A stretch of 64,000 nt of DNA from an uncultured Chlamydiae bacterium (GTDB taxonomy: Bacteria > Chlamydiota > Chlamydiia > Chlamydiales > SM23-39): NCBI GenBank assembly GCA_963730605.1, contig CAVSSM010000001.1:608001-672000 (forward strand). The letters run 5' to 3'. Below, piece after piece: positions 16,859 to 64,000 of this stretch (within the stretch, counting starts at the first letter, position 1; every line of letters starts with the position of its first letter). Position numbers and translations under genes: made by a program. The notes beneath the pieces are model-generated. The model was not told the DNA's origin. It did no database searches and saw nothing but the letters and a program-made list of their open reading frames with translations.

Positions 16859-18322
16859 TTAAATATTTTTGCTCACAATTTCAGCGATTGCTTTGCGGTT
16901 GATTTTGTGGCCATTTTTGGGCAATTCATCATTGATGAAGAGAAAGCGGATAGGGATTTTGAACTTCGGAAGATGCTCGAGAAGGGCGCTTTTCAGGTAG
17001 GCGGGGTCTTTAGCTCGGGTGGACGCCACGAGGACCGCGAGCGGACGCTTGCCGAATTCAGGGTCGTCAACGGGGACCACCGCAGCTTCGAAAACATCCG
17101 GCAGTAAGAGGAGCTGCTGTTCGATCTCTTCGGGCTGGATATTTTCTCCCCCCGAGATGAACTGCCAGTCAATTCTACCCAAAACGGTCAGCCCGTCGTC
17201 TGACATCCGTCCAAGGTCCCCGGTCGCAAACCAGCTATCTTGATCAAACGGCTTTGAGATTCGCCCCTCTTCCCAGTAGCCCTCAAAGAGGCACTTTCCC
17301 CGCACGAGGATCTCGCCGATCTTCCCCTTCCCCAAAGACGATGCGTCTTTGGGGGCCCCTGTGGGGGAAAGGCGAAGTTCCCGTTCGGGAAGAGGAAAGC
17401 CCAAGGGGACCCCGAAGTCGCATCGACTTTGGGGTTGGGGAAAAAAAGATTTAGCGCCTACAGTGACAAGCGATCCCATTTCAGTCAGACCGTAGGACAG
17501 ATAGCAGGGAAGATGTTCAGGAAAAGAAGAGATGGGGGCGCCGCCGATCAGCAGGCACCGAAGATTTTTGTAGACGGGCGATTTCCGGTAAAGCTGGGCC
17601 GGCACGGCTGAAATGTGGGTGATTTCGGGGTCTTTCTCATCGAGGACAACAGTGGCAAGCGCTAAAGTAGAGCGTATAAGGATGCCGATCCCGCCTACAT
17701 GGTAAAGGGGGAGGTTGAGAAGCCAACGGTCCCCGATCCGTAACCCAAGCCATTTGGCAAGAGGCGCGGCGTTCGAGAGGAGATTAGAGAGCGATAGAAC
17801 GGCAATTTTTGGGAGAGCGGTCGAGCCCGAGGTGAAGAGGAGCGCCGCCGGGAAGGAAAGGGGAGGGTAGCGGTTCATGCGGAGGCGCGGGGAAAGGGGG
17901 GAAAAAGGGAGAAAAGAAAGGGGCCCCCGAAGTCGCATCGACTTTGGGGAAAAAAGGGGCCCCCAATGACGCATCGACTTTGGGGAAAAAAGGGGCCCCC
18001 AATGACGCATCGACTTTGGGGAAAAAGAGTCGATGAAGCAACGGGCGTCGAGGCGAGCGAGCAGGGTTTCGATTTGGGAAGCGGGAAGACGAAGCGATAG
18101 TGGGCAGATCGACGCTCCGATGCGCCAAGCGGCAAAAAATAGGGCTGCCGTTTCGCAAGTTGGGCGGTGCAAAAAAGCGATCCGGTCGCCCGGGCCGATG
18201 CCCGAGGCCTCGAGCGCCCGCGCCATCTTGTCCGCAAGCTCGTCAAGCTCTTGAAAGGTCGTCTTGTCAAAGGCGGGCAGTCGGGGAGCGAGTCTCGCGG
18301 CTTCTTTTAACGGACAGGGCAT
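16859..18322 (-). CDS. menE: o-succinylbenzoate-CoA ligase carrying in-frame REP-like inserts
   Basis: FTSGST..PK, YGLTE, ATGDLG, ISGGENIQPEEIE; located in the men cluster. Confidence 0.9.
   Translation of the reverse strand: MPCPLKEAARLAPRLPAFDKTTFQELDELADKMARALEASGIGPGDRIAFLHRPTCETAALFFAAWRIGASICPLSLRLPASQIETLLARLDARCFIDSFSPKSMRHWGPLFSPKSMRHWGPLFSPKSMRLRGPLSFLPFSPLSPRLRMNRYPPLSFPAALLFTSGSTALPKIAVLSLSNLLSNAAPLAKWLGLRIGDRWLLNLPLYHVGGIGILIRSTLALATVVLDEKDPEITHISAVPAQLYRKSPVYKNLRCLLIGGAPISSFPEHLPCYLSYGLTEMGSLVTVGAKSFFPQPQSRCDFGVPLGFPLPERELRLSPTGAPKDASSLGKGKIGEILVRGKCLFEGYWEEGRISKPFDQDSWFATGDLGRMSDDGLTVLGRIDWQFISGGENIQPEEIEQQLLLLPDVFEAAVVPVDDPEFGKRPLAVLVASTRAKDPAYLKSALLEHLPKFKIPIRFLFINDELPKNGHKINRKAIAEIVSKNI
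17330..17434. repeat. Two REP-like hairpins in opposite orientation inside menE
   Basis: CCCCAAAGACGATGCGTCTTTGGGGGCCCC (17330-17359) and GGGGACCCCGAAGTCGCATCGACTTTGGGG (17405-17434). Confidence 0.85.
17919..18026. repeat. Three tandem 36-bp REP-like units inside menE
   Basis: AGGGGCCCCC..CGCATCGACTTTGGGGAAAAA x3, encoding FSPKSMR(H/L)(W/R)GPL x3. Confidence 0.92.
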
Positions 18323-22951: not shown

Positions 22952-24781
22952 TTAATTTACGGTAAACACCGACTCTCTCGAGCAAGCGGATTGGAATTTT
23001 TTTTGAAACCTGTAGTTTTCATCCCTCTTTGTAAAGAGTTCCACTAGGGCGCTTTGCTCGAAGGAGATGCGCTCGAAGGGGAGATAGGGGATGCCGAACA
23101 TCCGGGCCGCGTCTTCAAAGCGGAAGGAGTGGGAGGCCGCCATATAGGTTTCGAATTGAGGCCACTCTGCGATGGGAAGATGAGAAAAGATGCCGCTGCC
23201 GAAATTGTTCGAGGCCAAAATAACGACAGGGTGGGCGGTTTTTTTCAAAAGGGGAAGGGAATTCAGGTCATGGAGACAGGTCTGGTCTCCAAGAATGGCA
23301 AGGACGGGGGCGTGAAGCCCCTCCGAGAGCCCTGCAGCAGTGGCGATATTGCCGTCGATGCCCGAAAGGCCCCGGTTGCCAAAAAACCCCAGGCATTTTT
23401 TCGGAAAAAGAAAATGATCGGCGTCGCGGATTGGCATCCCGTTCGCAAGGAAAACGGCAAAAAACTCTGGAAGCATTTCGGCGAGATGACGCATCGCGTG
23501 CGCTTCGGTAAAAGGAAAGTCCTCCCGGAACTGGTTTTCAGAGACGGCCAAGATCTCCTCATCGAGCCCTTTCCATCGGCCAAGCCATGAAGGGTCGCAT
23601 CCACCTGCAAATGTTTCGCAAAAAGGTTCGATATCGCACTGCAAACGGCCATGCAATCTCCGGTTCGGATCTTGAAGAAAAGGGGACGGGCTTACATGGA
23701 GTGTCGGCGCCCAATCTAGAATTTTTTTAGAGGCGAACCGATTGCCGAAATGAAGGATATAATCAGGGAACAGGTGCGGATTTGTTTTGATAATCCAATC
23801 GAAATGGCGGATCTGTTCGTAAGAGGGCTCTAGCCTCGCATTGGATAGGATGTCGGCAAATACGGGCCATTGAAGCCTTTCCGCAAGGGTCAAGATAGGA
23901 CGGGGATCGGATCCGGTCTCGCCGATGAAGATGACCCCTCGTTTTGCCTCTGTTTTGGTTGGAGGCGGGACGAGGCGGGCAGGGGCAAAGCGGATGGGGA
24001 ATCCCGATTCTTGGGGAGGATCTCGAGTAAAAGGTTCGCGGAATTGGCAATTGAGCTGGACGGGGCCTTTCGGGTTTTGGGTCGCGTGGAAGACCCCTTG
24101 CGCGGCGATTGAGCGGAAATAACTTTCGGAAAGGTGTGGCGGAAGATCGGCTTGCCAGCGGATAAAATGGCTGAAAATCTTGATTTGGTCCGTGGTTTGG
24201 TTTGCGCCGCAATCTCGGAGCTCTGCGGGCCGATCGCAAGTCAGAAGAATCATCGGCGTGGAGCTGTGGTGCGCCTCCATGACGCTGGGGAGAAGATTGC
24301 CGACGGCGGTCCCCGAGGTCGTGATCACGGCAGCGGGGCGCCTTGCCCCTTTTCCATATCCTAACGCATAAAAACCAAGGCCCCGCTCGTCATAATGGAC
24401 GATCGTTTTCGTTCGAGGGTGTTCTGCGGCCGCCACGACAAGCGGCGTATTTCTCGATCCTGGGGCAATGCAGAAATGATCGGTCCCTTGGCAGATCAAT
24501 TGATCGATGATCCAAAATGCCTCTTTATTAACATGGGTGGTAAAAAGTTGACAATCTACTTGCTGCGCCTCCCTTCGGGCCGATTCGCTTCGCTCATCTG
24601 CTCCGCGAGAAAAAGGTTTCTCGAACCTTTTTCTCGATTCCGCAGCCAAATCGATCTTCCTCGTCGCCCTTGCCTCTGGCAATGGTGCTCCTTGTTCAGA
24701 ACGGGGGCTTTGCCCCCTTCGATTTTGCTGTGGCTCGCTGGCGTATATTGTCTCCTTTTTATCGCCCCTGTTAATAGTCAT
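22952..24781 (-). CDS. menD: SEPHCHC synthase with an 83-aa N-terminal in-frame insert
   Basis: PGSRNTPL, DERGLGF.ALG, TTSGTAVGNLLP, GANQTTDQ, GNRGLSGIDG, GD...LHDLNSL. Confidence 0.95.
   Translation of the reverse strand: MTINRGDKKETIYASEPQQNRRGQSPRSEQGAPLPEARATRKIDLAAESRKRFEKPFSRGADERSESARREAQQVDCQLFTTHVNKEAFWIIDQLICQGTDHFCIAPGSRNTPLVVAAAEHPRTKTIVHYDERGLGFYALGYGKGARRPAAVITTSGTAVGNLLPSVMEAHHSSTPMILLTCDRPAELRDCGANQTTDQIKIFSHFIRWQADLPPHLSESYFRSIAAQGVFHATQNPKGPVQLNCQFREPFTRDPPQESGFPIRFAPARLVPPPTKTEAKRGVIFIGETGSDPRPILTLAERLQWPVFADILSNARLEPSYEQIRHFDWIIKTNPHLFPDYILHFGNRFASKKILDWAPTLHVSPSPFLQDPNRRLHGRLQCDIEPFCETFAGGCDPSWLGRWKGLDEEILAVSENQFREDFPFTEAHAMRHLAEMLPEFFAVFLANGMPIRDADHFLFPKKCLGFFGNRGLSGIDGNIATAAGLSEGLHAPVLAILGDQTCLHDLNSLPLLKKTAHPVVILASNNFGSGIFSHLPIAEWPQFETYMAASHSFRFEDAARMFGIPYLPFERISFEQSALVELFTKRDENYRFQKKFQSACSRESVFTVN
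24526..24776. mobile_element. TA-flanked MITE (family B) inserted in frame in menD
   Basis: 30-bp imperfect TIRs TATTAACA(T/G)GGG(T/C)G(G/A)TAAAAAG..GACAAT; 247 bp + TA = 249 bp = 83 codons. Confidence 0.88.
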
Positions 24782-25727: not shown

Positions 25728-26422
25728 CGCTTCTCCCCTAAATATAAAGTGACGACGCCAAGCGCCATTGGAATTTGCCGAGACGTGAGGGAGGCGCTTT
25801 TCATTAAAGATAAGAAGGCGCCGCCGCTTGGGAAAGTTTCGATCGTCTCGTTCAAATAGCGGTAGGCTGCTCTATTTTTGGAAAAAAATCCGCCAACGTG
25901 AGGAAGGATGCGGCGCAAATAGAAGAGATGGAGCGTTTTCAAGGGCTTTGGCGGCAAGGAAAATTCCAAGATAAGACACCTTCCGCCGGGTTTCAGGACA
26001 CGGGCAATTTCTTTGAGCGCGGCACTCGGATCGGACACGTTGCGGATCCCGAAAGAAAACGTCGCCGCATCGAAAGAGCTATCCCTAAAGGGGAGCCGCA
26101 AAGCGTCGGCGCGCTGAAATTTGACTTTTGTTTTGTAAGGTTTCGATCCGATTTTGGCCTGGGCAATTTCGAGCATGAAAGAGGCAAGGTCGATGCCGAC
26201 CGCGGACCGGATGTGGGCGTCGCTCTCCATGCAGGCGATGAGCTGATCCCCTGTCCCTGTCGCTATGTCGAGGAGATCCAGATTTTTTCGCTCTGGCAGG
26301 TGCAGGGCGGCACGCCTTCTCCAACCGCGGTCCATCCCAAAGGATAGGATCGAGTTGATCCGGTCATAGGTCGCTGAGATCGCATCGAACATTTTCCAGA
26401 CGTTTTCCCGGGAGTGGGTCAT
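25724..26422 (-). CDS. menG: Demethylmenaquinone methyltransferase
   Basis: MFDAIS..YD..N..LSFG, LDIATGTGD, FGIRNV, RVLKPGG...ILEFS. Confidence 0.93.
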   Translation of the reverse strand: MTHSRENVWKMFDAISATYDRINSILSFGMDRGWRRRAALHLPERKNLDLLDIATGTGDQLIACMESDAHIRSAVGIDLASFMLEIAQAKIGSKPYKTKVKFQRADALRLPFRDSSFDAATFSFGIRNVSDPSAALKEIARVLKPGGRCLILEFSLPPKPLKTLHLFYLRRILPHVGGFFSKNRAAYRYLNETIETFPSGGAFLSLMKSASLTSRQIPMALGVVTLYLGEKR

Positions 26423-28083
26423 GCGGTTGCCTCTTGCTCGGCGGTTCTAGTGTTCGCAGCAAGGAGACCCGCCGCAAGGAAAAATGGGAGCTTCCCTTGC
26501 TGAAAGAGGAGCGGGTAAAAATCGCAGCCCCCGATGAAAAGAAAGGCGATAAAAATAGCGGTCAAAGAGGCAGTGAGGGGGGTAAGGGGTGTGTGGCTCG
26601 CCGCCCAAAGCAAGGAGAAAATGAAGAGGAGAAACGCGGAAAGAGATAGAAGACCCGTTTCTCCAGCCAAGTAGAGATAGATATTATGAGTGGCGCTCGA
26701 CGCTGGGAATTCCTTGCCCCCGAAAGGCTTTTGGGGGAGATAATCAAGGCCGCGGATCGAGAGCTGGTCAAACCCGGCGCCAAAAAGGGGAAAGTCTTTG
26801 ATGACTTGGAGCGCCAAGTTTTGATAGGAGATCCGAAGAGCGTCCGACCCTTGCGCAACCCCATTGTAATTCACGATCCCGCCGCGATCCTTGATTTGGG
26901 TCTGAAGGACAAGAAAGCTAAAAAGGATGGAGAAGGTTATTGTAAGGGCAGGAAGCCGGATCGACTTCCAGAGGAAACGTAAACCATTTTGCCTCAAATG
27001 GAGACCGAACCAGGCCAGGGTGCCGAGCATCAAACTAAAAAGCGCTGACCGGGAAAACGTTAGACTCATCGCGAAGAATTGGATGGGAATCATCAGTGCC
27101 GCTGCAAGACGCCACTTTGGGCGGGAAAAAAGCGAATAAGCCGCAAGGATTGACATGCTTAAATACCCGCCCAGGACGTTTGGGTGCGGGAAGGTGCCTG
27201 AAGGTCGGATCACTTCGCGCGGCTGCACGCCTAAGTTGTTATCGAACAGCCAAATGCGTCCCGAATCGACACCAAATACAGGAAAGCTGGACGGCTCGCT
27301 GAAGAGGCGGAGGCCAAGAGGCCCTTGAATTGCGTATTGGGCGATCGCGAGGCCCGATTGGATGAGCGCGGTTCCTATAAGGCATTGGAGCAAAAGAAAA
27401 GAGAGTTTGGATTTGTCCTCTACTCTCCCGTTGGCAAGGAAACAAAAAAGGATAAAGGGGGTGGCAAGTTGCAATAGGCGGATGTAGGGGATAGGGTAAC
27501 TGGCAAAAGGAGAAAGGGCGATCGAAATCAAAGCGCAAAGAAAAACGGTCCAAAGAAAAACGGCGCCTCTAGGTATGAAGAATCGTCTCAAAGGGATGCG
27601 GAACGCAAAAAGGGCAATGAAGAGGAGCAAAAGAGCGATGACATCGGAAGGGTAGAAATAGATCTTCTTATCGAAGAAGCTCGGCAAAACTAGATTTCCC
27701 GGGATGAGTTTCAGAGAAAAAAAACGGAAGAGCTTGTCGTATTTGTGCTCGAAGGGAATAGCAAAAGCGATAACGCAGAGGAGAAAAAGGGATATACTGC
27801 GCGCGGTTGGCTTCTTAAAATTTGGACGGGCTGCGACTTCGCCAAATCGATCTGCTCCGCGAGAAAAACGGTCCATCCGAGGACCGTTTTTCTCGATTCC
27901 GCAGTCCTCGGAAATATTGCCTTCGGATATTTCCTTCGCCCCGTCCCCAAAAACGATGCGTTGTTTGGGGGCCCCTGGGGAGGTCGGTCGGACCGCTTCG
28001 CTTCGATTTTGCTTTGTCTCGCTTGCGTTCAAATTTAAAAATCCTTCCCGCGCGCAGTATAGACGCCGCCAAAACATAAACAC
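26419..28083 (-). CDS. O-antigen ligase (Wzy_C/WaaL-like) membrane protein with an 89-aa in-frame insert
   Basis: Polytopic; GTFPHPNVLGG, TFSRSA, P.FGAG, HNIYLYLAGETG; probable start at ATG 28077. Confidence 0.85.
   Translation of the reverse strand: MFMFWRRLYCAREGFLNLNASETKQNRSEAVRPTSPGAPKQRIVFGDGAKEISEGNISEDCGIEKNGPRMDRFSRGADRFGEVAARPNFKKPTARSISLFLLCVIAFAIPFEHKYDKLFRFFSLKLIPGNLVLPSFFDKKIYFYPSDVIALLLLFIALFAFRIPLRRFFIPRGAVFLWTVFLCALISIALSPFASYPIPYIRLLQLATPFILFCFLANGRVEDKSKLSFLLLQCLIGTALIQSGLAIAQYAIQGPLGLRLFSEPSSFPVFGVDSGRIWLFDNNLGVQPREVIRPSGTFPHPNVLGGYLSMSILAAYSLFSRPKWRLAAALMIPIQFFAMSLTFSRSALFSLMLGTLAWFGLHLRQNGLRFLWKSIRLPALTITFSILFSFLVLQTQIKDRGGIVNYNGVAQGSDALRISYQNLALQVIKDFPLFGAGFDQLSIRGLDYLPQKPFGGKEFPASSATHNIYLYLAGETGLLSLSAFLLFIFSLLWAASHTPLTPLTASLTAIFIAFLFIGGCDFYPLLFQQGKLPFFLAAGLLAANTRTAEQEATA
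27793..28061. mobile_element. TA-flanked MITE (family A) inserted in frame
   Basis: Perfect ends TATACTGCGCGCGG and CCGCGCGCAGTATA; 265 bp + TA = 267 bp = 89 codons; second copy at 63799-64000. Confidence 0.93.
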
Positions 28084-28164
28084 GACGTCAAACTTATCGC
28101 ATATGCAGATTTAGTTCAAAACTACTTAGCTCTCATCCCAAAAAAGCCCCTGGATTTTTTCTCT

Positions 28165-29562
28165 TCATGGACAGGCTTCTCGACCACATTGGCATTTTCT
28201 TGGCCATAGAGTGGATTCCTCTAGAGGATTCTCTGCATTATCTTGGATTTCGAGTTGATGTTCTTGTTTGAGGTAGTTCTTAAGAATTCGATCAATGGTA
28301 CTGATCTCTAGCGCATTTTTATTTCTTACTTCTGTTTTCAATCGATTGATGAATTTAAAAATGTCGCGACCTGAGAACCCTTCTGTTTGGTTGCCAATAT
28401 GTTCGATAATCTCCGGTGTAAAGAAACGTCGATATTCGGAGGGAGTCACAAGGAGATCGACGTTGCTTCTGGTCATCTCTTTCCGTTCCGCCAGCTCAGG
28501 AGCTCCAATTTTGATTTTGTAATCCATACGGCTCAGTATTGCTGGATCCAGATTTTTCGGAAGATTTGTAGCAAAGACCCACATGATTTTAGAACTAGAT
28601 GAACTTGTTAATTTCAGGAATGCATTTAAAAAAGACACTAATTCTTGGCTTTTGCCATTTTTTTTGGCTTCCTCCCTGTTTTCAAAGCATGCTTCCGCTT
28701 CATCCACAAAAATAACGGTTTGAGAAGGGAGGCTTTTCACATATTCTACCAATTTTTGCAACATGTCGACCGCTGCGCCCGCAGAGTTCTGATTCGAGAC
28801 GCGGACGCTGACCGGTCCTTGCAAAGCGTTATAATTCATCCCTTTTAAGAAATCTCCGCCAGAAATGTACATGTAATTCATATTGGAGTTCTTTGCGATC
28901 CATTTTGAGATCATTGTTTTTCCTGTTCCAGGAGGACCGTAGACAAGTAGATGTTGAAAAAAGTCATTTCTTTCTTTGCTTGTCTGCGTGGTGGCTAGGA
29001 TTTCATCAAGTTCTGCTTGGAGCTTAGGGCTAAATATGGGTTTTGTTTCCAAAGAGAGATCCTTGTCAAAGTATTGGGAAATCACTTCGTAGGAGCCAAG
29101 AGCTAGCGATGCTCCGACTCCGATCAGCGTAGGCAATACCCACAAAGAGATCAGGTCGTTTCCAAAATAGTCCTTACTAAAGCCAAAGAGATTGAGACAA
29201 GACGAGGTTGTTTTATGCGCCAGAGTCCAAAGGGACTTCGCTGTAGGATGCATATCGGAATAAAGCCAAGAGAGCCATAACGCTCCTCCGGTGATACTGG
29301 ATGCGGTAGCCCCTTCTACTCGATGCGCCCAGAATTTGGAGCCAAACTCTTGGGCTTTTTGTTTGGTATTAGGCCACCAATCCACATAATTTATTTTAAC
29401 TGGCAAGGATTCACTTTCAAAAAATTTATTAGCAAGAGATGATAATATGCTTTTTGTCATCATCGCGCCAAAGGCGAGTGCGCCCATCTTATACACAGTG
29501 CTCTGGACGTTTTTTAAAGAATTTGCTATATCATCCAAACTATTTATATTAATATTATTCAT
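28165..29562 (-). CDS. AAA+ ATPase with N-terminal hydrophobic segments (ATAD3-like)
   Basis: LLVYGPPGTGKT, ISGGD, FVDEAEA, LNAFL, ATN.P..LDPAILSRMD, TEGFSGRDI. Confidence 0.85.
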   Translation of the reverse strand: MNNININSLDDIANSLKNVQSTVYKMGALAFGAMMTKSILSSLANKFFESESLPVKINYVDWWPNTKQKAQEFGSKFWAHRVEGATASSITGGALWLSWLYSDMHPTAKSLWTLAHKTTSSCLNLFGFSKDYFGNDLISLWVLPTLIGVGASLALGSYEVISQYFDKDLSLETKPIFSPKLQAELDEILATTQTSKERNDFFQHLLVYGPPGTGKTMISKWIAKNSNMNYMYISGGDFLKGMNYNALQGPVSVRVSNQNSAGAAVDMLQKLVEYVKSLPSQTVIFVDEAEACFENREEAKKNGKSQELVSFLNAFLKLTSSSSSKIMWVFATNLPKNLDPAILSRMDYKIKIGAPELAERKEMTRSNVDLLVTPSEYRRFFTPEIIEHIGNQTEGFSGRDIFKFINRLKTEVRNKNALEISTIDRILKNYLKQEHQLEIQDNAENPLEESTLWPRKCQCGREACP

Positions 29563-61917: not shown

Positions 61918-64000
61918 TTATTTTCTAATCAAATTAAGTTGCCAAGTAAATCGGTCGTCTTTGTCTGTATGGCGATAGGAAAGACGGAGTTTTAGCGAGG
62001 TGGCGATCCAGGTGAAAAGGTCGAGTTGAAATTCGTTATAGGGATCTTCGGTCGATCGGAGAAACCCGTGATGGGACTGGAAATGGCATTCCCAAAAAGG
62101 GGAGAGACGGACAAAAATGTCGGTGAGGAGGGTCAGCCTCCGGTCGGAAAGAGGCGAGGCGAGAAGGTCGCTTTCCGAACGGGTGACGTCGAGGATGAAA
62201 TTTTCATGGTCCGCTTTGCGCCAGTCGTATTGGGAACGGTAGCGCGCTTCCAGGCTAAGCGCAATATTTTCATTGATCGTCCAACGACACCGGGCGTTCA
62301 TGAAGTCGTCCACATGATTCCGGAAGTTCCATGCGTTATGGAAGGATAGATAGACGGAAGCGAGGCGCCATTCGAGCCAAAGGTAGAGGCGGGGGATGAA
62401 CTGGGGAATGGTTGGGTTGGAAAAAAATGCGTTTGCATAGAGATCGGCCGTAAACCACGGTTCAAACACTTTGCTGACTTTTGTAAAAGTAAGACTGCGG
62501 ACCCCTCCCTGGATCTGGTTGATTTGGTTGTAGCCGTCCATGATCGAAAAGATATAGTGGTCATCGGGCCTGACTGTCGGACGGGTCAGGGCCAAAAACC
62601 CGGCATAAGGTTCGATGACATGCTGATTCTGGGAGTAGGACCTAACTCCTCTTGCGGCGAGGTCGGCCCCATAGACAAGGAGGCCAAGGGCTTTTGAGTT
62701 ATGCGATGCGCTATTGGTATAGAGCGTCCCGATCCCGCCGACGTTCGGGGTGAAGGTGACAGGGCCCCAATGGAAAGGGCGATGGAGCCTTTCCCGGATT
62801 TCAATACGCCCCGAGCGGTAATCCATGGGAGGCTTGAGGGTGGGCGTCGTGGCGAGCTGGTCAGAATAGGCGAAATCGAGGTAGGAGGCCTTTAGGAAGA
62901 GGCTAGACAGGATGCCGGTCGGCCCTAAGGTCATGGGTAGCAGATTGAGATAAAAAGTCGGCAAGTCTTGTTTGATCGACTCGAATGTGTTTAACCTAGG
63001 CCGGGCTTTAAAATTGGCGATGCAAAGCGGCGCCGCATGGTAAGCCCAAAAAAGGGTCTGCTGGGCTGTGCCGATTTCGAAATCTTCGCTCCTAAAATCG
63101 CTTGGCATCCGCACATCGCTATATTTATCCCAAGTCAATGCGGTATTGGTCCTCCCATCCTGGCTGCGCCAGTGATGAGCTCCTTCTAAGCGGAAACGGA
63201 ATTGTTTATTGGGCGCTGTTTCGAGCCGGTCTGTTCCTACATAGCTCCGTGTAACGAAGATGCTTTGCCCGTCCGGAGGGAAATATTCGCTTTCGATGGC
63301 TCCTCCCCAACCGGAGCTCCAACGGTATTCCACTCTTCCGAACAGGGCAAAATCACGCCAAGAATAAAGCTGATAGCGCATCCCGGCCCGCAAACCTTGG
63401 CCTCTATCCCAGTTGAGGAAATACCGGACGATCGGATCGCGGTTGCTTTTTTTCAGGTTCAATTTAAAGGAGGGGAGCCAAAAGGTGGGGATTTTATATA
63501 GGCGAAACGCGATGTTTTTCGCGATGAAAAGATCGGAGCTCTTAGCCTCAATGCGGCTCGCATGAAGGTCCCAATCGCTGTCTTTGTTTTCCGAGGCTGT
63601 AATGGAAGCGTTTTCCACCTCATAGCTGCCGTCGGCGTTCAATTCGATCCTCTCTCCCGAGATATACCAAAGGCTGAAAAACGTTTTTCCTTTGAACACG
63701 ACTCCAGTATTTGTCAGGAAATCGTATTCCAGCCTCTCGCCGACAAACACCCGATCTTTGTACTGGATCATCAAGTCGCCGGACGCTTCGATCCGATGTA
63801 TACTGTACGCGGTTGGCTTTTTAAAATTTGGACGGGCTGCGACTTCGTCAAATCGATCTGCTCCGCGAGAAAAACGGTCCATCCGAGGACCGTTTTTCTC
63901 GATTCCGCAGTCCTCGGAAATATTGCCTTCGGATATTTCCTTCGCCCCGTCCCCAAAAACGATGCGTTGTTTGGGGGCCCCTGGGGAGGTCGGTCGGACC
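61918..64000 (-). CDS. LptD/OstA-like outer membrane protein (5' end beyond the window) with an in-frame family A insert
   Basis: Aromatic-rich beta-barrel-like sequence, YDFLTNTG, IPTFWLP; the frame stays open through the element to position 64000. Confidence 0.7.
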   Translation of the reverse strand, partial: VRPTSPGAPKQRIVFGDGAKEISEGNISEDCGIEKNGPRMDRFSRGADRFDEVAARPNFKKPTAYSIHRIEASGDLMIQYKDRVFVGERLEYDFLTNTGVVFKGKTFFSLWYISGERIELNADGSYEVENASITASENKDSDWDLHASRIEAKSSDLFIAKNIAFRLYKIPTFWLPSFKLNLKKSNRDPIVRYFLNWDRGQGLRAGMRYQLYSWRDFALFGRVEYRWSSGWGGAIESEYFPPDGQSIFVTRSYVGTDRLETAPNKQFRFRLEGAHHWRSQDGRTNTALTWDKYSDVRMPSDFRSEDFEIGTAQQTLFWAYHAAPLCIANFKARPRLNTFESIKQDLPTFYLNLLPMTLGPTGILSSLFLKASYLDFAYSDQLATTPTLKPPMDYRSGRIEIRERLHRPFHWGPVTFTPNVGGIGTLYTNSASHNSKALGLLVYGADLAARGVRSYSQNQHVIEPYAGFLALTRPTVRPDDHYIFSIMDGYNQINQIQGGVRSLTFTKVSKVFEPWFTADLYANAFFSNPTIPQFIPRLYLWLEWRLASVYLSFHNAWNFRNHVDDFMNARCRWTINENIALSLEARYRSQYDWRKADHENFILDVTRSESDLLASPLSDRRLTLLTDIFVRLSPFWECHFQSHHGFLRSTEDPYNEFQLDLFTWIATSLKLRLSYRHTDKDDRFTWQLNLIRK
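63799..64000. mobile_element. Family A MITE, second copy (cut by the window edge)
   Basis: Nearly identical to 27793-27994 (about 4 substitutions); same TA boundary, orientation and frame. Confidence 0.92.

Follow-up and report, generated by a model that had tools for sequence, protein, structure and literature searches.

In a window of 64,000 nucleotides from an uncultured Chlamydiae bacterium (contig CAVSSM010000001.1, positions 608,001 to 672,000; positions given without a contig are those of the window), we analyzed a repeat at 27793-28061 that lies in frame within the gene of a Wzy_C-like membrane protein. The repeat is a non-autonomous DNA transposon, a MITE (miniature inverted-repeat transposable element): it has terminal inverted repeats (TIRs) and a TA duplication when compared with an empty site, it is small and multi-copy, and it holds no transposase gene. 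Nine of the eleven family members that can be followed from TIR to TIR in this genome reside in long open reading frames (ORFs), always in one orientation and one codon phase. The source genome is a metagenome-assembled draft of 2.22 Mb in 12 contigs (C1, C2 and so on below), 83% complete and with 16% of its bases in repeats; a sister species from the same genus is labeled G003. The features of the locus, and the second copy in the window, are the following.

26419-28083, minus strand: 554-aa ORF of a polytopic membrane protein resembling Wzy_C and O-antigen ligases (Pfam PF04932, E 4.1e-13)
27793-28061, minus strand (translated orientation): the MITE, 265 bp plus duplicated TA, delimited from TIRs, copies and empty sites
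27793-27828, no strand: TIR arm 1, including the TA copy at 27793-27794 (self-complementarity; empty-site DNA in G003)
28026-28061, no strand: TIR arm 2, including the other TA copy at 28060-28061 (self-complementarity; empty-site DNA in G003)
27857-27904, minus strand: internal hairpin module, 48 bp or 16 codons, with a 15-nt perfect stem at 27860-27895 (alignment; not in the G003 variant)
27939-27983, minus strand: internal hairpin module, 45 bp or 15 codons (alignment; not in the 176-bp variant of G003)
63799-64000, minus strand: first 202 bases of a second, 97% identical copy that runs past the window end to C1:672067 (sequence match)

Anatomy of the Element

The initial annotation of this DNA had described perfect inverted-repeat ends, a unit of 267 bp without stops, and a scarcity of stops in both orientations, all of which held on measurement. 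The ends, at 27793-27806 and 28048-28061, form a perfect inverted repeat of 14 nt (TATACTGCGCGCGG and CCGCGCGCAGTATA), and an imperfect stem, 78% complementary, reaches 36 nt. With up to two mismatches allowed, the 14-mer occurs three times in the window against 0.27 expected, a count reached by none of 100 shuffles, the third match being the left end of the second copy at 63799. The 265 bp and one TA make 267 bp, or 89 codons free of stops in the minus-strand frame in use, and the TA at 28060-28061 provides positions 2-3 of a Leu codon (CTA) of the host gene. The encoded peptide, YCAREGFLNL...KPTARSI, with EISEGNISEDCGIEK as an internal segment, has no Pfam match. An opposite-strand ORF over the element (27704-28114) is likewise open. 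Stops per frame number 1, 0, 1, 2, 1, and 0, a six-frame total of 5 against 14.1 ± 2.4 (minimum 7) in 2000 dinucleotide-preserving shuffles. The two open frames differ in what they encode: the peptide of the used frame is hydrophilic (GRAVY -0.91; 16 K+R and 12 D+E), whereas that of the other is more hydrophobic and strongly basic (GRAVY -0.18; 15 K+R and 4 D+E), a contrast that may explain why real genes carry a single orientation. The coding-strand RNA is predicted to fold into a rod whose closing stem consists of the inverted repeats, at -116.5 kcal/mol (z = -7.1 against shuffles).

Near-Identical Copies and Empty Sites

Three full, near-identical copies occur in the genome, namely the window copy at 27793-28061, one at C1:383410-383677 (99%) and one at C1:671799-672067 (97%). 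Their flanks are mutually unrelated, and each of the three is carried by a long ORF on the minus strand, orientation and frame being shared by all; at each site the TA falls on the second and third positions of a CTA or ATA codon, the phase that the open frame needs. Besides the Wzy_C-like protein, the hosts are the following.

C1:383410-383677 (element), minus strand: SprT-like protein (Pfam)
C1:671799-672067 (element, after residue 69), minus strand: CT351-family outer-membrane beta-barrel protein, 785 aa, with signal peptide (NCBIfam NF052235, E 5.5e-76)

In the Wzy_C-like host the element occupies codons 8-97 of the ORF, and the gene likely starts at the ATG of codon 3, as in its G003 ortholog. 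Orthologs were recovered in 21 of the 40 relatives searched. The closest, that of G003 (82% identity), is free of the insert and reads ...ARFMFWRRL/SLFLLSVLAF across the site (slash); its DNA there is CGTCTCTCCC, against CGTC-TA-(265 bp)-TA-TCCC in this genome. The MFWRRL-SLFLL junction that the initial annotation had obtained by removing the element on paper is thus matched at both the protein and the DNA level, and the clean gap at the TA that it anticipated in orthologs recurs in other hosts. The SprT-like ortholog of G003 (88%) is empty (...KFMI/LSFEE), with the insert also absent from 7 further orthologs examined; barrel orthologs show a single clean 89-residue gap in 8/8 aligned, and empty sites exist for the Mur ligase and E1 dehydrogenase hosts listed below. 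The barrel host also has a weak LptD match, and a Pfam scan of it gave no hit. The third copy differs from the first at eight positions, four of which make up a GC-to-TA change mirrored in both arms (TGCGCGCGG to TGTACGCGG and its mirror, at window positions 63799-63812 and C1:672054-672067), so that pairing is kept, which points to correction of one arm from the other or to selection for the stem.

The Family within the Genome

A family model built with nhmmer from eight variants, oriented as translated, detected ten members of full length here, among 42 hits that include both strands and fragments, and a 113-bp mini-variant brings the TIR-to-TIR members to eleven, the family spanning 113-269 bp. 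The nine members in long ORFs lie in stop-to-stop frames of 298-785 aa. Beyond the three near-identical copies, the hosts are as follows, strand not stated.

Mur ligase: element follows codon 2; the G003 ortholog has an empty site
Fused E1 dehydrogenase, 749 aa: insert at residue 162, inside the E1_dh domain (Pfam); insert absent in 5/5 same-genus genomes
502-aa protein of no known family: element C1:495566-495801, at residue 326 (ORF)
388-aa ORF, unnamed: element in the canonical frame (ORF)
YbbR-like protein and CTP_transf_3 (KdsB-like) protein: element forms the C-terminal tail, with the stop one codon past it

The two exceptions are a duplicated segment of the KdsB tail in a 124-aa ORF and a copy at C1:687410 whose canonical frame is open for only 90 aa. 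The flanking dinucleotide varies slightly among the eleven, the second TA being TG in two members and the first CA in two, and further family insertions have their TA within ATA or CTA codons. As a control we took the five largest MITE families of about 170-200 bp (families 1-5) obtained by clustering of this same genome: only 4 of their 91 copies lie in long ORFs, and their median number of stops over six frames is 9-16. The contrast of 9/11 with 4/91 gives a Fisher p of 1.6e-8, a value computed over non-independent copies and groups defined post hoc.

Two other repeats of the genome deserve mention beside the family. A 255-bp repeat of another family lies at window positions 24524-24778 (ends TTATTAACA.../...TGTTAATA), has internal stretches in common with the 265-bp element, and is in frame five codons into a 613-aa minus-strand ORF. 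A TA-flanked MITE family of 322 bp has 6 of its 10 copies inside ORFs of 450-928 aa (C1:12685-13010, C4:3234-3572, C7:30657-30981, C9:103301-103573, C9:107224-107499, and C1:448864-449076), and in-frame residence therefore extends beyond one family.

Lengths and Internal Modules

Adding the hairpin modules of 45 and 48 bp to the 176-bp form of G003 gives the 269-bp form. Counted with one TA fewer, the lengths in this genome are 267, 234, 162, and 111 bp, and those in relatives 180, 162, 228, 210, 171, and 174 bp, all multiples of three (3n); exceptions are degenerate copies of 181 and 182 bp (G064) and 173 bp (G006), and also a copy of 170 bp in G115. The same holds for the modules by which variants differ (45, 48, 66, 39, and 72 bp, each 3n). 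The core of the 45-bp module, about 30 nt, recurs at 40 places across the genome; at 25 of these it falls, in several frames, within a stop-to-stop ORF of at least 150 aa. Copies of this hairpin module of about 30-45 bp (CCCCAAA...TTTGGGG), partly in tandem, are also present at window positions 17324-17367 and 17914-18027 within a 490-aa ORF, and BLAST places the module five times in tandem, at a spacing of 45 bp, at C1:317822-318046.

An Insertion Shared by Two Species

G003 has the insertion of the 502-aa host at the identical site (G003:C63); the ORF is open in both species, at 478 aa there and 502 aa here, and the element has thus outlived speciation inside a gene. The copy of this genome carries an extra module of 24 aa relative to that of G003. 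Over the 53 codons that the two elements share, nucleotide identity is 96.9% (third positions 96%), compared with 88.8% (third positions 79%) over the 425 flanking host codons. This excess of silent-site conservation might stem from constraint on the hairpin, from gene conversion between copies or from transfer, and it hints that something besides coding, whether DNA or RNA structure or gene conversion, also acts on the element. The downstream TA is TG in this host (C1:495799-495801), a variant that is internal to the protein (TERGM) and common to G003.

Relatives and Public Proteins

By BLAST, pieces of the element occur in 25 of the 103 genomes of the same family; counts here and below run over related copies and genomes and are to that extent non-independent. 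Among 26 copies with family ends examined in eight other genomes, nine are canonical in long ORFs (three in G064, two in G091, and one each in G092, G112, G001, and G115, the last with its phase shifted at the 5' end), four lie in the other orientation and 13 have no long ORF. Of the nine canonical hosts, seven gave Pfam matches, namely MptE-like, PhyH, Mur ligase, NTase_sub_bind, aldo/keto reductase, UDPGP, and aconitase. In one of them (G091:C118 1514-1677, locus L091) the element cuts NTase_sub_bind into two Pfam stretches of a 214-aa ORF, the insertion point being central in a compact helical domain and not terminal. The four ORFs over other-orientation copies (136-184 aa) had been considered as genes; they gave no Pfam hit and were not counted. 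An empty site of the converse kind was also found, the insert of a UDPGP-family protein in G001 being missing from the ortholog in this genome.

A profile of ten element peptides, run against 5.8 billion proteins (at least 157 aa; 8000 candidates scored), matched at least 134 public proteins at E <= 1e-5. Precomputed Pfam domains are available for 82 of the 120 matches listed and belong to many unrelated families; hosts among the matches listed include MutS, BamA, DapB, RecC, PGK, PtsI, heptosyltransferase, and aminotransferase IV. Named sources among the matches listed are Rhabdochlamydiaceae or Chlamydiae, with one exception, a Verrucomicrobia transaldolase. The peptide is internal in 68 of these 120, within the first 30 aa in 32 and C-terminal in 20.

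A search of sequencing runs turned up no RNA run containing the locus. Four soil-metagenome DNA runs (Logan contigs) yielded short, low-depth pieces, none spanning the stretch, and in these low-depth contigs no joint across the element at its TA sites was found. One contig of 217 nt bridges the left element junction. In run X4 two joints of low likeness skip internal modules (52 and 45 nt), and these probably derive from related elements elsewhere.

A Candidate Transposase

The genome has 29 matches to DDE_3 (PF13358, IS630-family), in three types of insertion sequence (IS). The commonest, a TA-flanked IS of about 1.13 kb that accounts for 14 of the 29, encodes a 347-aa helix-turn-helix plus DDE_3 transposase (E 3e-34); its ends are TATACCGCTCGTGATTCAAAATTTTGA (TATACCGC..., TATACCGCTCGTG...). 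The family ends, TATACTGCGCGCGG... here and TATACCGCGCGCAGG... in relatives, are like the ends of this IS in their first nucleotides (TATACYGC...). The 322-bp MITE family matches the same IS end at 16/17 nt, so that there is good support for MITEs of this genome being mobilized by IS630-type transposases. An IS630-type transposase would most likely be the mobilizer of the 265-bp element family as well, judging from TA duplication and end sequence. A search for an IS with the exact family TIRs gave solo hits at C2:53257, C2:58054, C2:243824, and C9:153910, which are truncated copies. The window itself contains one of the 29 DDE_3 matches, of the 250-aa type, at 202-651 on the minus strand.

Origin of the In-Frame Copies

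Why should a small transposon so regularly occupy coding sequence? The features observed in this family (inverted repeats, TA, copies, empty sites, open frames, 3n lengths, stop depletion, a single orientation, and an insertion common to two species) are probably best explained by a MITE that an IS630/Tc1-mariner-type transposase mobilizes in trans and that belongs to a lineage built to sit inside genes. The transposase, acting in trans, would insert the element at a TA and duplicate it. The lineage appears fitted to genes in that one orientation is free of stops and that the length with its TA, like each added hairpin module, is 3n. An insertion with the TA on codon positions 2-3 would then be read through into a hydrophilic, probably disordered peptide, 89 aa long here and 37-78 aa in relatives, and such insertions would survive at protein N-termini, C-termini, and loops. 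The insert is presumably translated and the host proteins presumably still work. More tentatively, we propose that selection at the level of the element itself may have shaped the stop-free 3n frame, the disordered peptide and the growth by 3n hairpin cassettes, and may so have allowed the seeding of more than a hundred chlamydial proteins, among them MutS, BamA, an LptD-like barrel, and Mur ligases. That a non-autonomous family colonizes coding sequences had been the proposal of the initial annotation; it holds well beyond this genome, in relatives and public proteins, and the genome-wide tabulation that it called for gave the pattern already described (9/11 in ORFs of at least 298 aa, one orientation and frame, 3n lengths).

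Several observations weigh against this account. The link to IS630 and TA, also part of the initial annotation, stands with respect to the TA duplication and the 29 DDE_3 matches; the likeness of the ends, however, extends over only about 8-11 nt, the inner AAATTTTGA motif (AAATTT(T)G) is differently spaced, and no autonomous element with the exact family TIRs was found in the 83%-complete genome. The ORFs behind all host counts are stop-to-stop ORFs and not gene calls. The three 269-bp copies are 97-100% alike and hence recent insertions, and an intact ORF downstream says little on function, since reading always continues through an insert that is in frame and free of stops. In relatives only 9/26 copies lie in long canonical ORFs, many of the others being intergenic or degenerate. 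When a wider TIR superfamily is defined by the end pattern alone (65 elements from 13 genomes out of the 103 of the family, against two elements for a reversed-pattern control), a 3n length is seen in only 44/65, a proportion over non-independent copies; the 3n bias is therefore strongest in the sub-lineage of the 269-bp element. As to tolerance by the host, AlphaFold gives insert residues 65-158 of the barrel protein a pLDDT of about 25 and no secondary structure (10-residue blocks 63-83 on the flanks, where strands 57-64 and 158-172 adjoin the insert), but the model is weak overall (mean pLDDT 59.9, pTM 0.40) and low values in the insert are partly expected, since the 9-row alignment has no homologs of the insert. 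The position is consistent with a tolerated loop, if weakly so.

Other explanations need to be weighed against the same evidence. The proximity of some copies to gene starts raises the idea that, in the Wzy_C-like, SprT-like, and Mur ligase genes, translation begins inside or just after the element, which would then be a leader. Three of the nine genic copies do lie no more than eight codons from the start, as do 32 of the 120 public matches listed if the first 30 aa are considered. Moreover, in the SprT-like gene (C1:383408-383412) the downstream TG creates an ATG at the element end (AGT ATG TTG), a possible rescue start whose product would be MLSFEE... in place of the MILSFEE... of G003, and the Wzy_C-like gene has an in-frame ATG inside the element at codon 70. 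Yet the first start past the element in the latter gene is the TTG of codon 133, beyond the ortholog-conserved SLFLL...IPFEHKYDKLFRFFSL. A leader moreover cannot be invoked for elements that lie inside proteins (barrel residue 69, E1 dehydrogenase residue 162, residue 326 in the 502-aa host, and 68/120 of the matches listed), and it leaves the 3n lengths and the absence of stops unexplained; we regard it as unlikely. A second idea does without adaptation: in-frame copies would be the mere survivors of random TA insertion, neutral or mildly harmful passengers in genes that are perhaps decaying. The recent 269-bp copies (97-100%), a genome rich in repeats (16%) and in IS630 transposase matches (29), and one relative's copy in a seemingly truncated aldo/keto reductase speak in its favor, and a rough arithmetic that assumes about 88% coding density indicates that random insertion followed by loss of frame-breakers could yield a mostly genic set. 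Survivorship, however, acts on insertions; it leaves unexplained the 5 stops of the element against about 14, the 3n variants and modules, and the 4/91 of other MITE families. One insertion, besides, predates the split of two species in which both ORFs remain open, and hosts include the conserved families MutS, BamA, DapB, and PGK, so that this account seems quite improbable to us.

The initial annotation had left two fates of the insert side by side, a translated peptide and removal at the RNA level. Removal could occur after transcription, as for an intron or an RNase-processed hairpin, or after translation, as for an intein, the host protein being restored in either case. The stable RNA rod (-116.5 kcal/mol, z -7.1) and the matched GC-to-TA change that preserves pairing in the arms of the third copy are in line with this. 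On the other hand, an Rfam scan of 27600-28300 at E <= 1 returned only C0465 (E 0.61) and no intron family, a Pfam scan of the host proteins found no intein or Hint domain, and we know of no ligation mechanism in bacteria for a plain hairpin. Since removal would make a 3n length and a stop-free frame pointless, the translated insert fits better, and we hold removal to be most improbable.

Comparison with Known Systems

Protein-coding selfish palindromes have been known for about 25 years, mainly from Rickettsia. The Rickettsia palindromic elements (RPEs) were reportedly described by Ogata and colleagues in Science in 2000 and in Genome Research in 2002; to our knowledge, no transposase or target duplication has been identified for them and how they move has not been established. 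By analogy, the 265-bp element family appears to work like RPEs, with in-frame residence in many unrelated ORFs and a conserved encoded peptide. As far as the available part of a review goes, which summarizes RPE-1 to RPE-10, both are hairpin-forming sequences of 100-270 bp from an obligate intracellular bacterium, in frame in many unrelated genes, and both have a conserved peptide that is thought to occupy surface loops without destroying function (PMC10969869). The likeness drawn here is one of behavior, and the chlamydial element belongs to another phylum. Unlike RPEs, so far as is known, it has long TIRs, a TA duplication and IS630 candidates in the same genome, and it differs further in its single orientation and frame and in its growth by 3n hairpin modules.

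The anatomy of the element points to another group. IS630-derived or TA-flanked MITEs include Correia/NEMIS in Neisseria, RUP in pneumococcus, and Nezha in cyanobacteria. The chlamydial element has in common with TA-flanked bacterial MITEs its TIRs, TA, small size, lack of a transposase, many copies and strong hairpin. That bacterial MITEs usually end in TA is noted in the accessible portion of one study (PMC5896051). In what is available of that study and of the review, TA-flanked families are mainly intergenic or gene-disrupting, whereas the chlamydial family is mainly genic and frame-compatible (PMC10969869; PMC5896051). The nearest precedents are QMITE1/2 of Coxiella burnetii, for which the accessible text records occasional in-frame insertion including C-terminal extensions (PMC5896051), and the intragenic enterobacterial (ERIC) and Anabaena MITEs treated in the available sections of the review (PMC10969869). 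The enhC case of QMITE, as given there, resembles the KdsB-like and YbbR-like hosts here, in which the ORF ends one codon past the element. As presented in these partial texts, the in-frame copies of QMITE, ERIC, and Anabaena elements are individual cases, whereas the chlamydial family is 9/11 genic, 3n, stop-depleted, and of one orientation. Literature searches, supplements excluded, found no published chlamydial description of the element; the portion of the 2024 MITE review at hand has no mention of chlamydiae (PMC10969869), and that of a Rhabdochlamydiaceae genome paper none of MITEs.

Annotation is affected as well: inserts of 37-89 aa in MutS, BamA, Mur ligases, and similar proteins of chlamydial metagenome-assembled genomes are mobile DNA, as opposed to domains specific to a lineage, and copies at an N-terminus can lead the prediction of start codons astray. 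Overall, environmental chlamydiae appear to harbor an independent, apparently large system that behaves like RPEs and combines this behavior with transposon anatomy and candidate IS630 transposases, a combination that makes it testable both how such elements spread and how proteins tolerate the inserts. Should the link to IS630 prove true, the chlamydial elements would become the first system of the RPE kind whose mechanism of transposition is known and can be tested.

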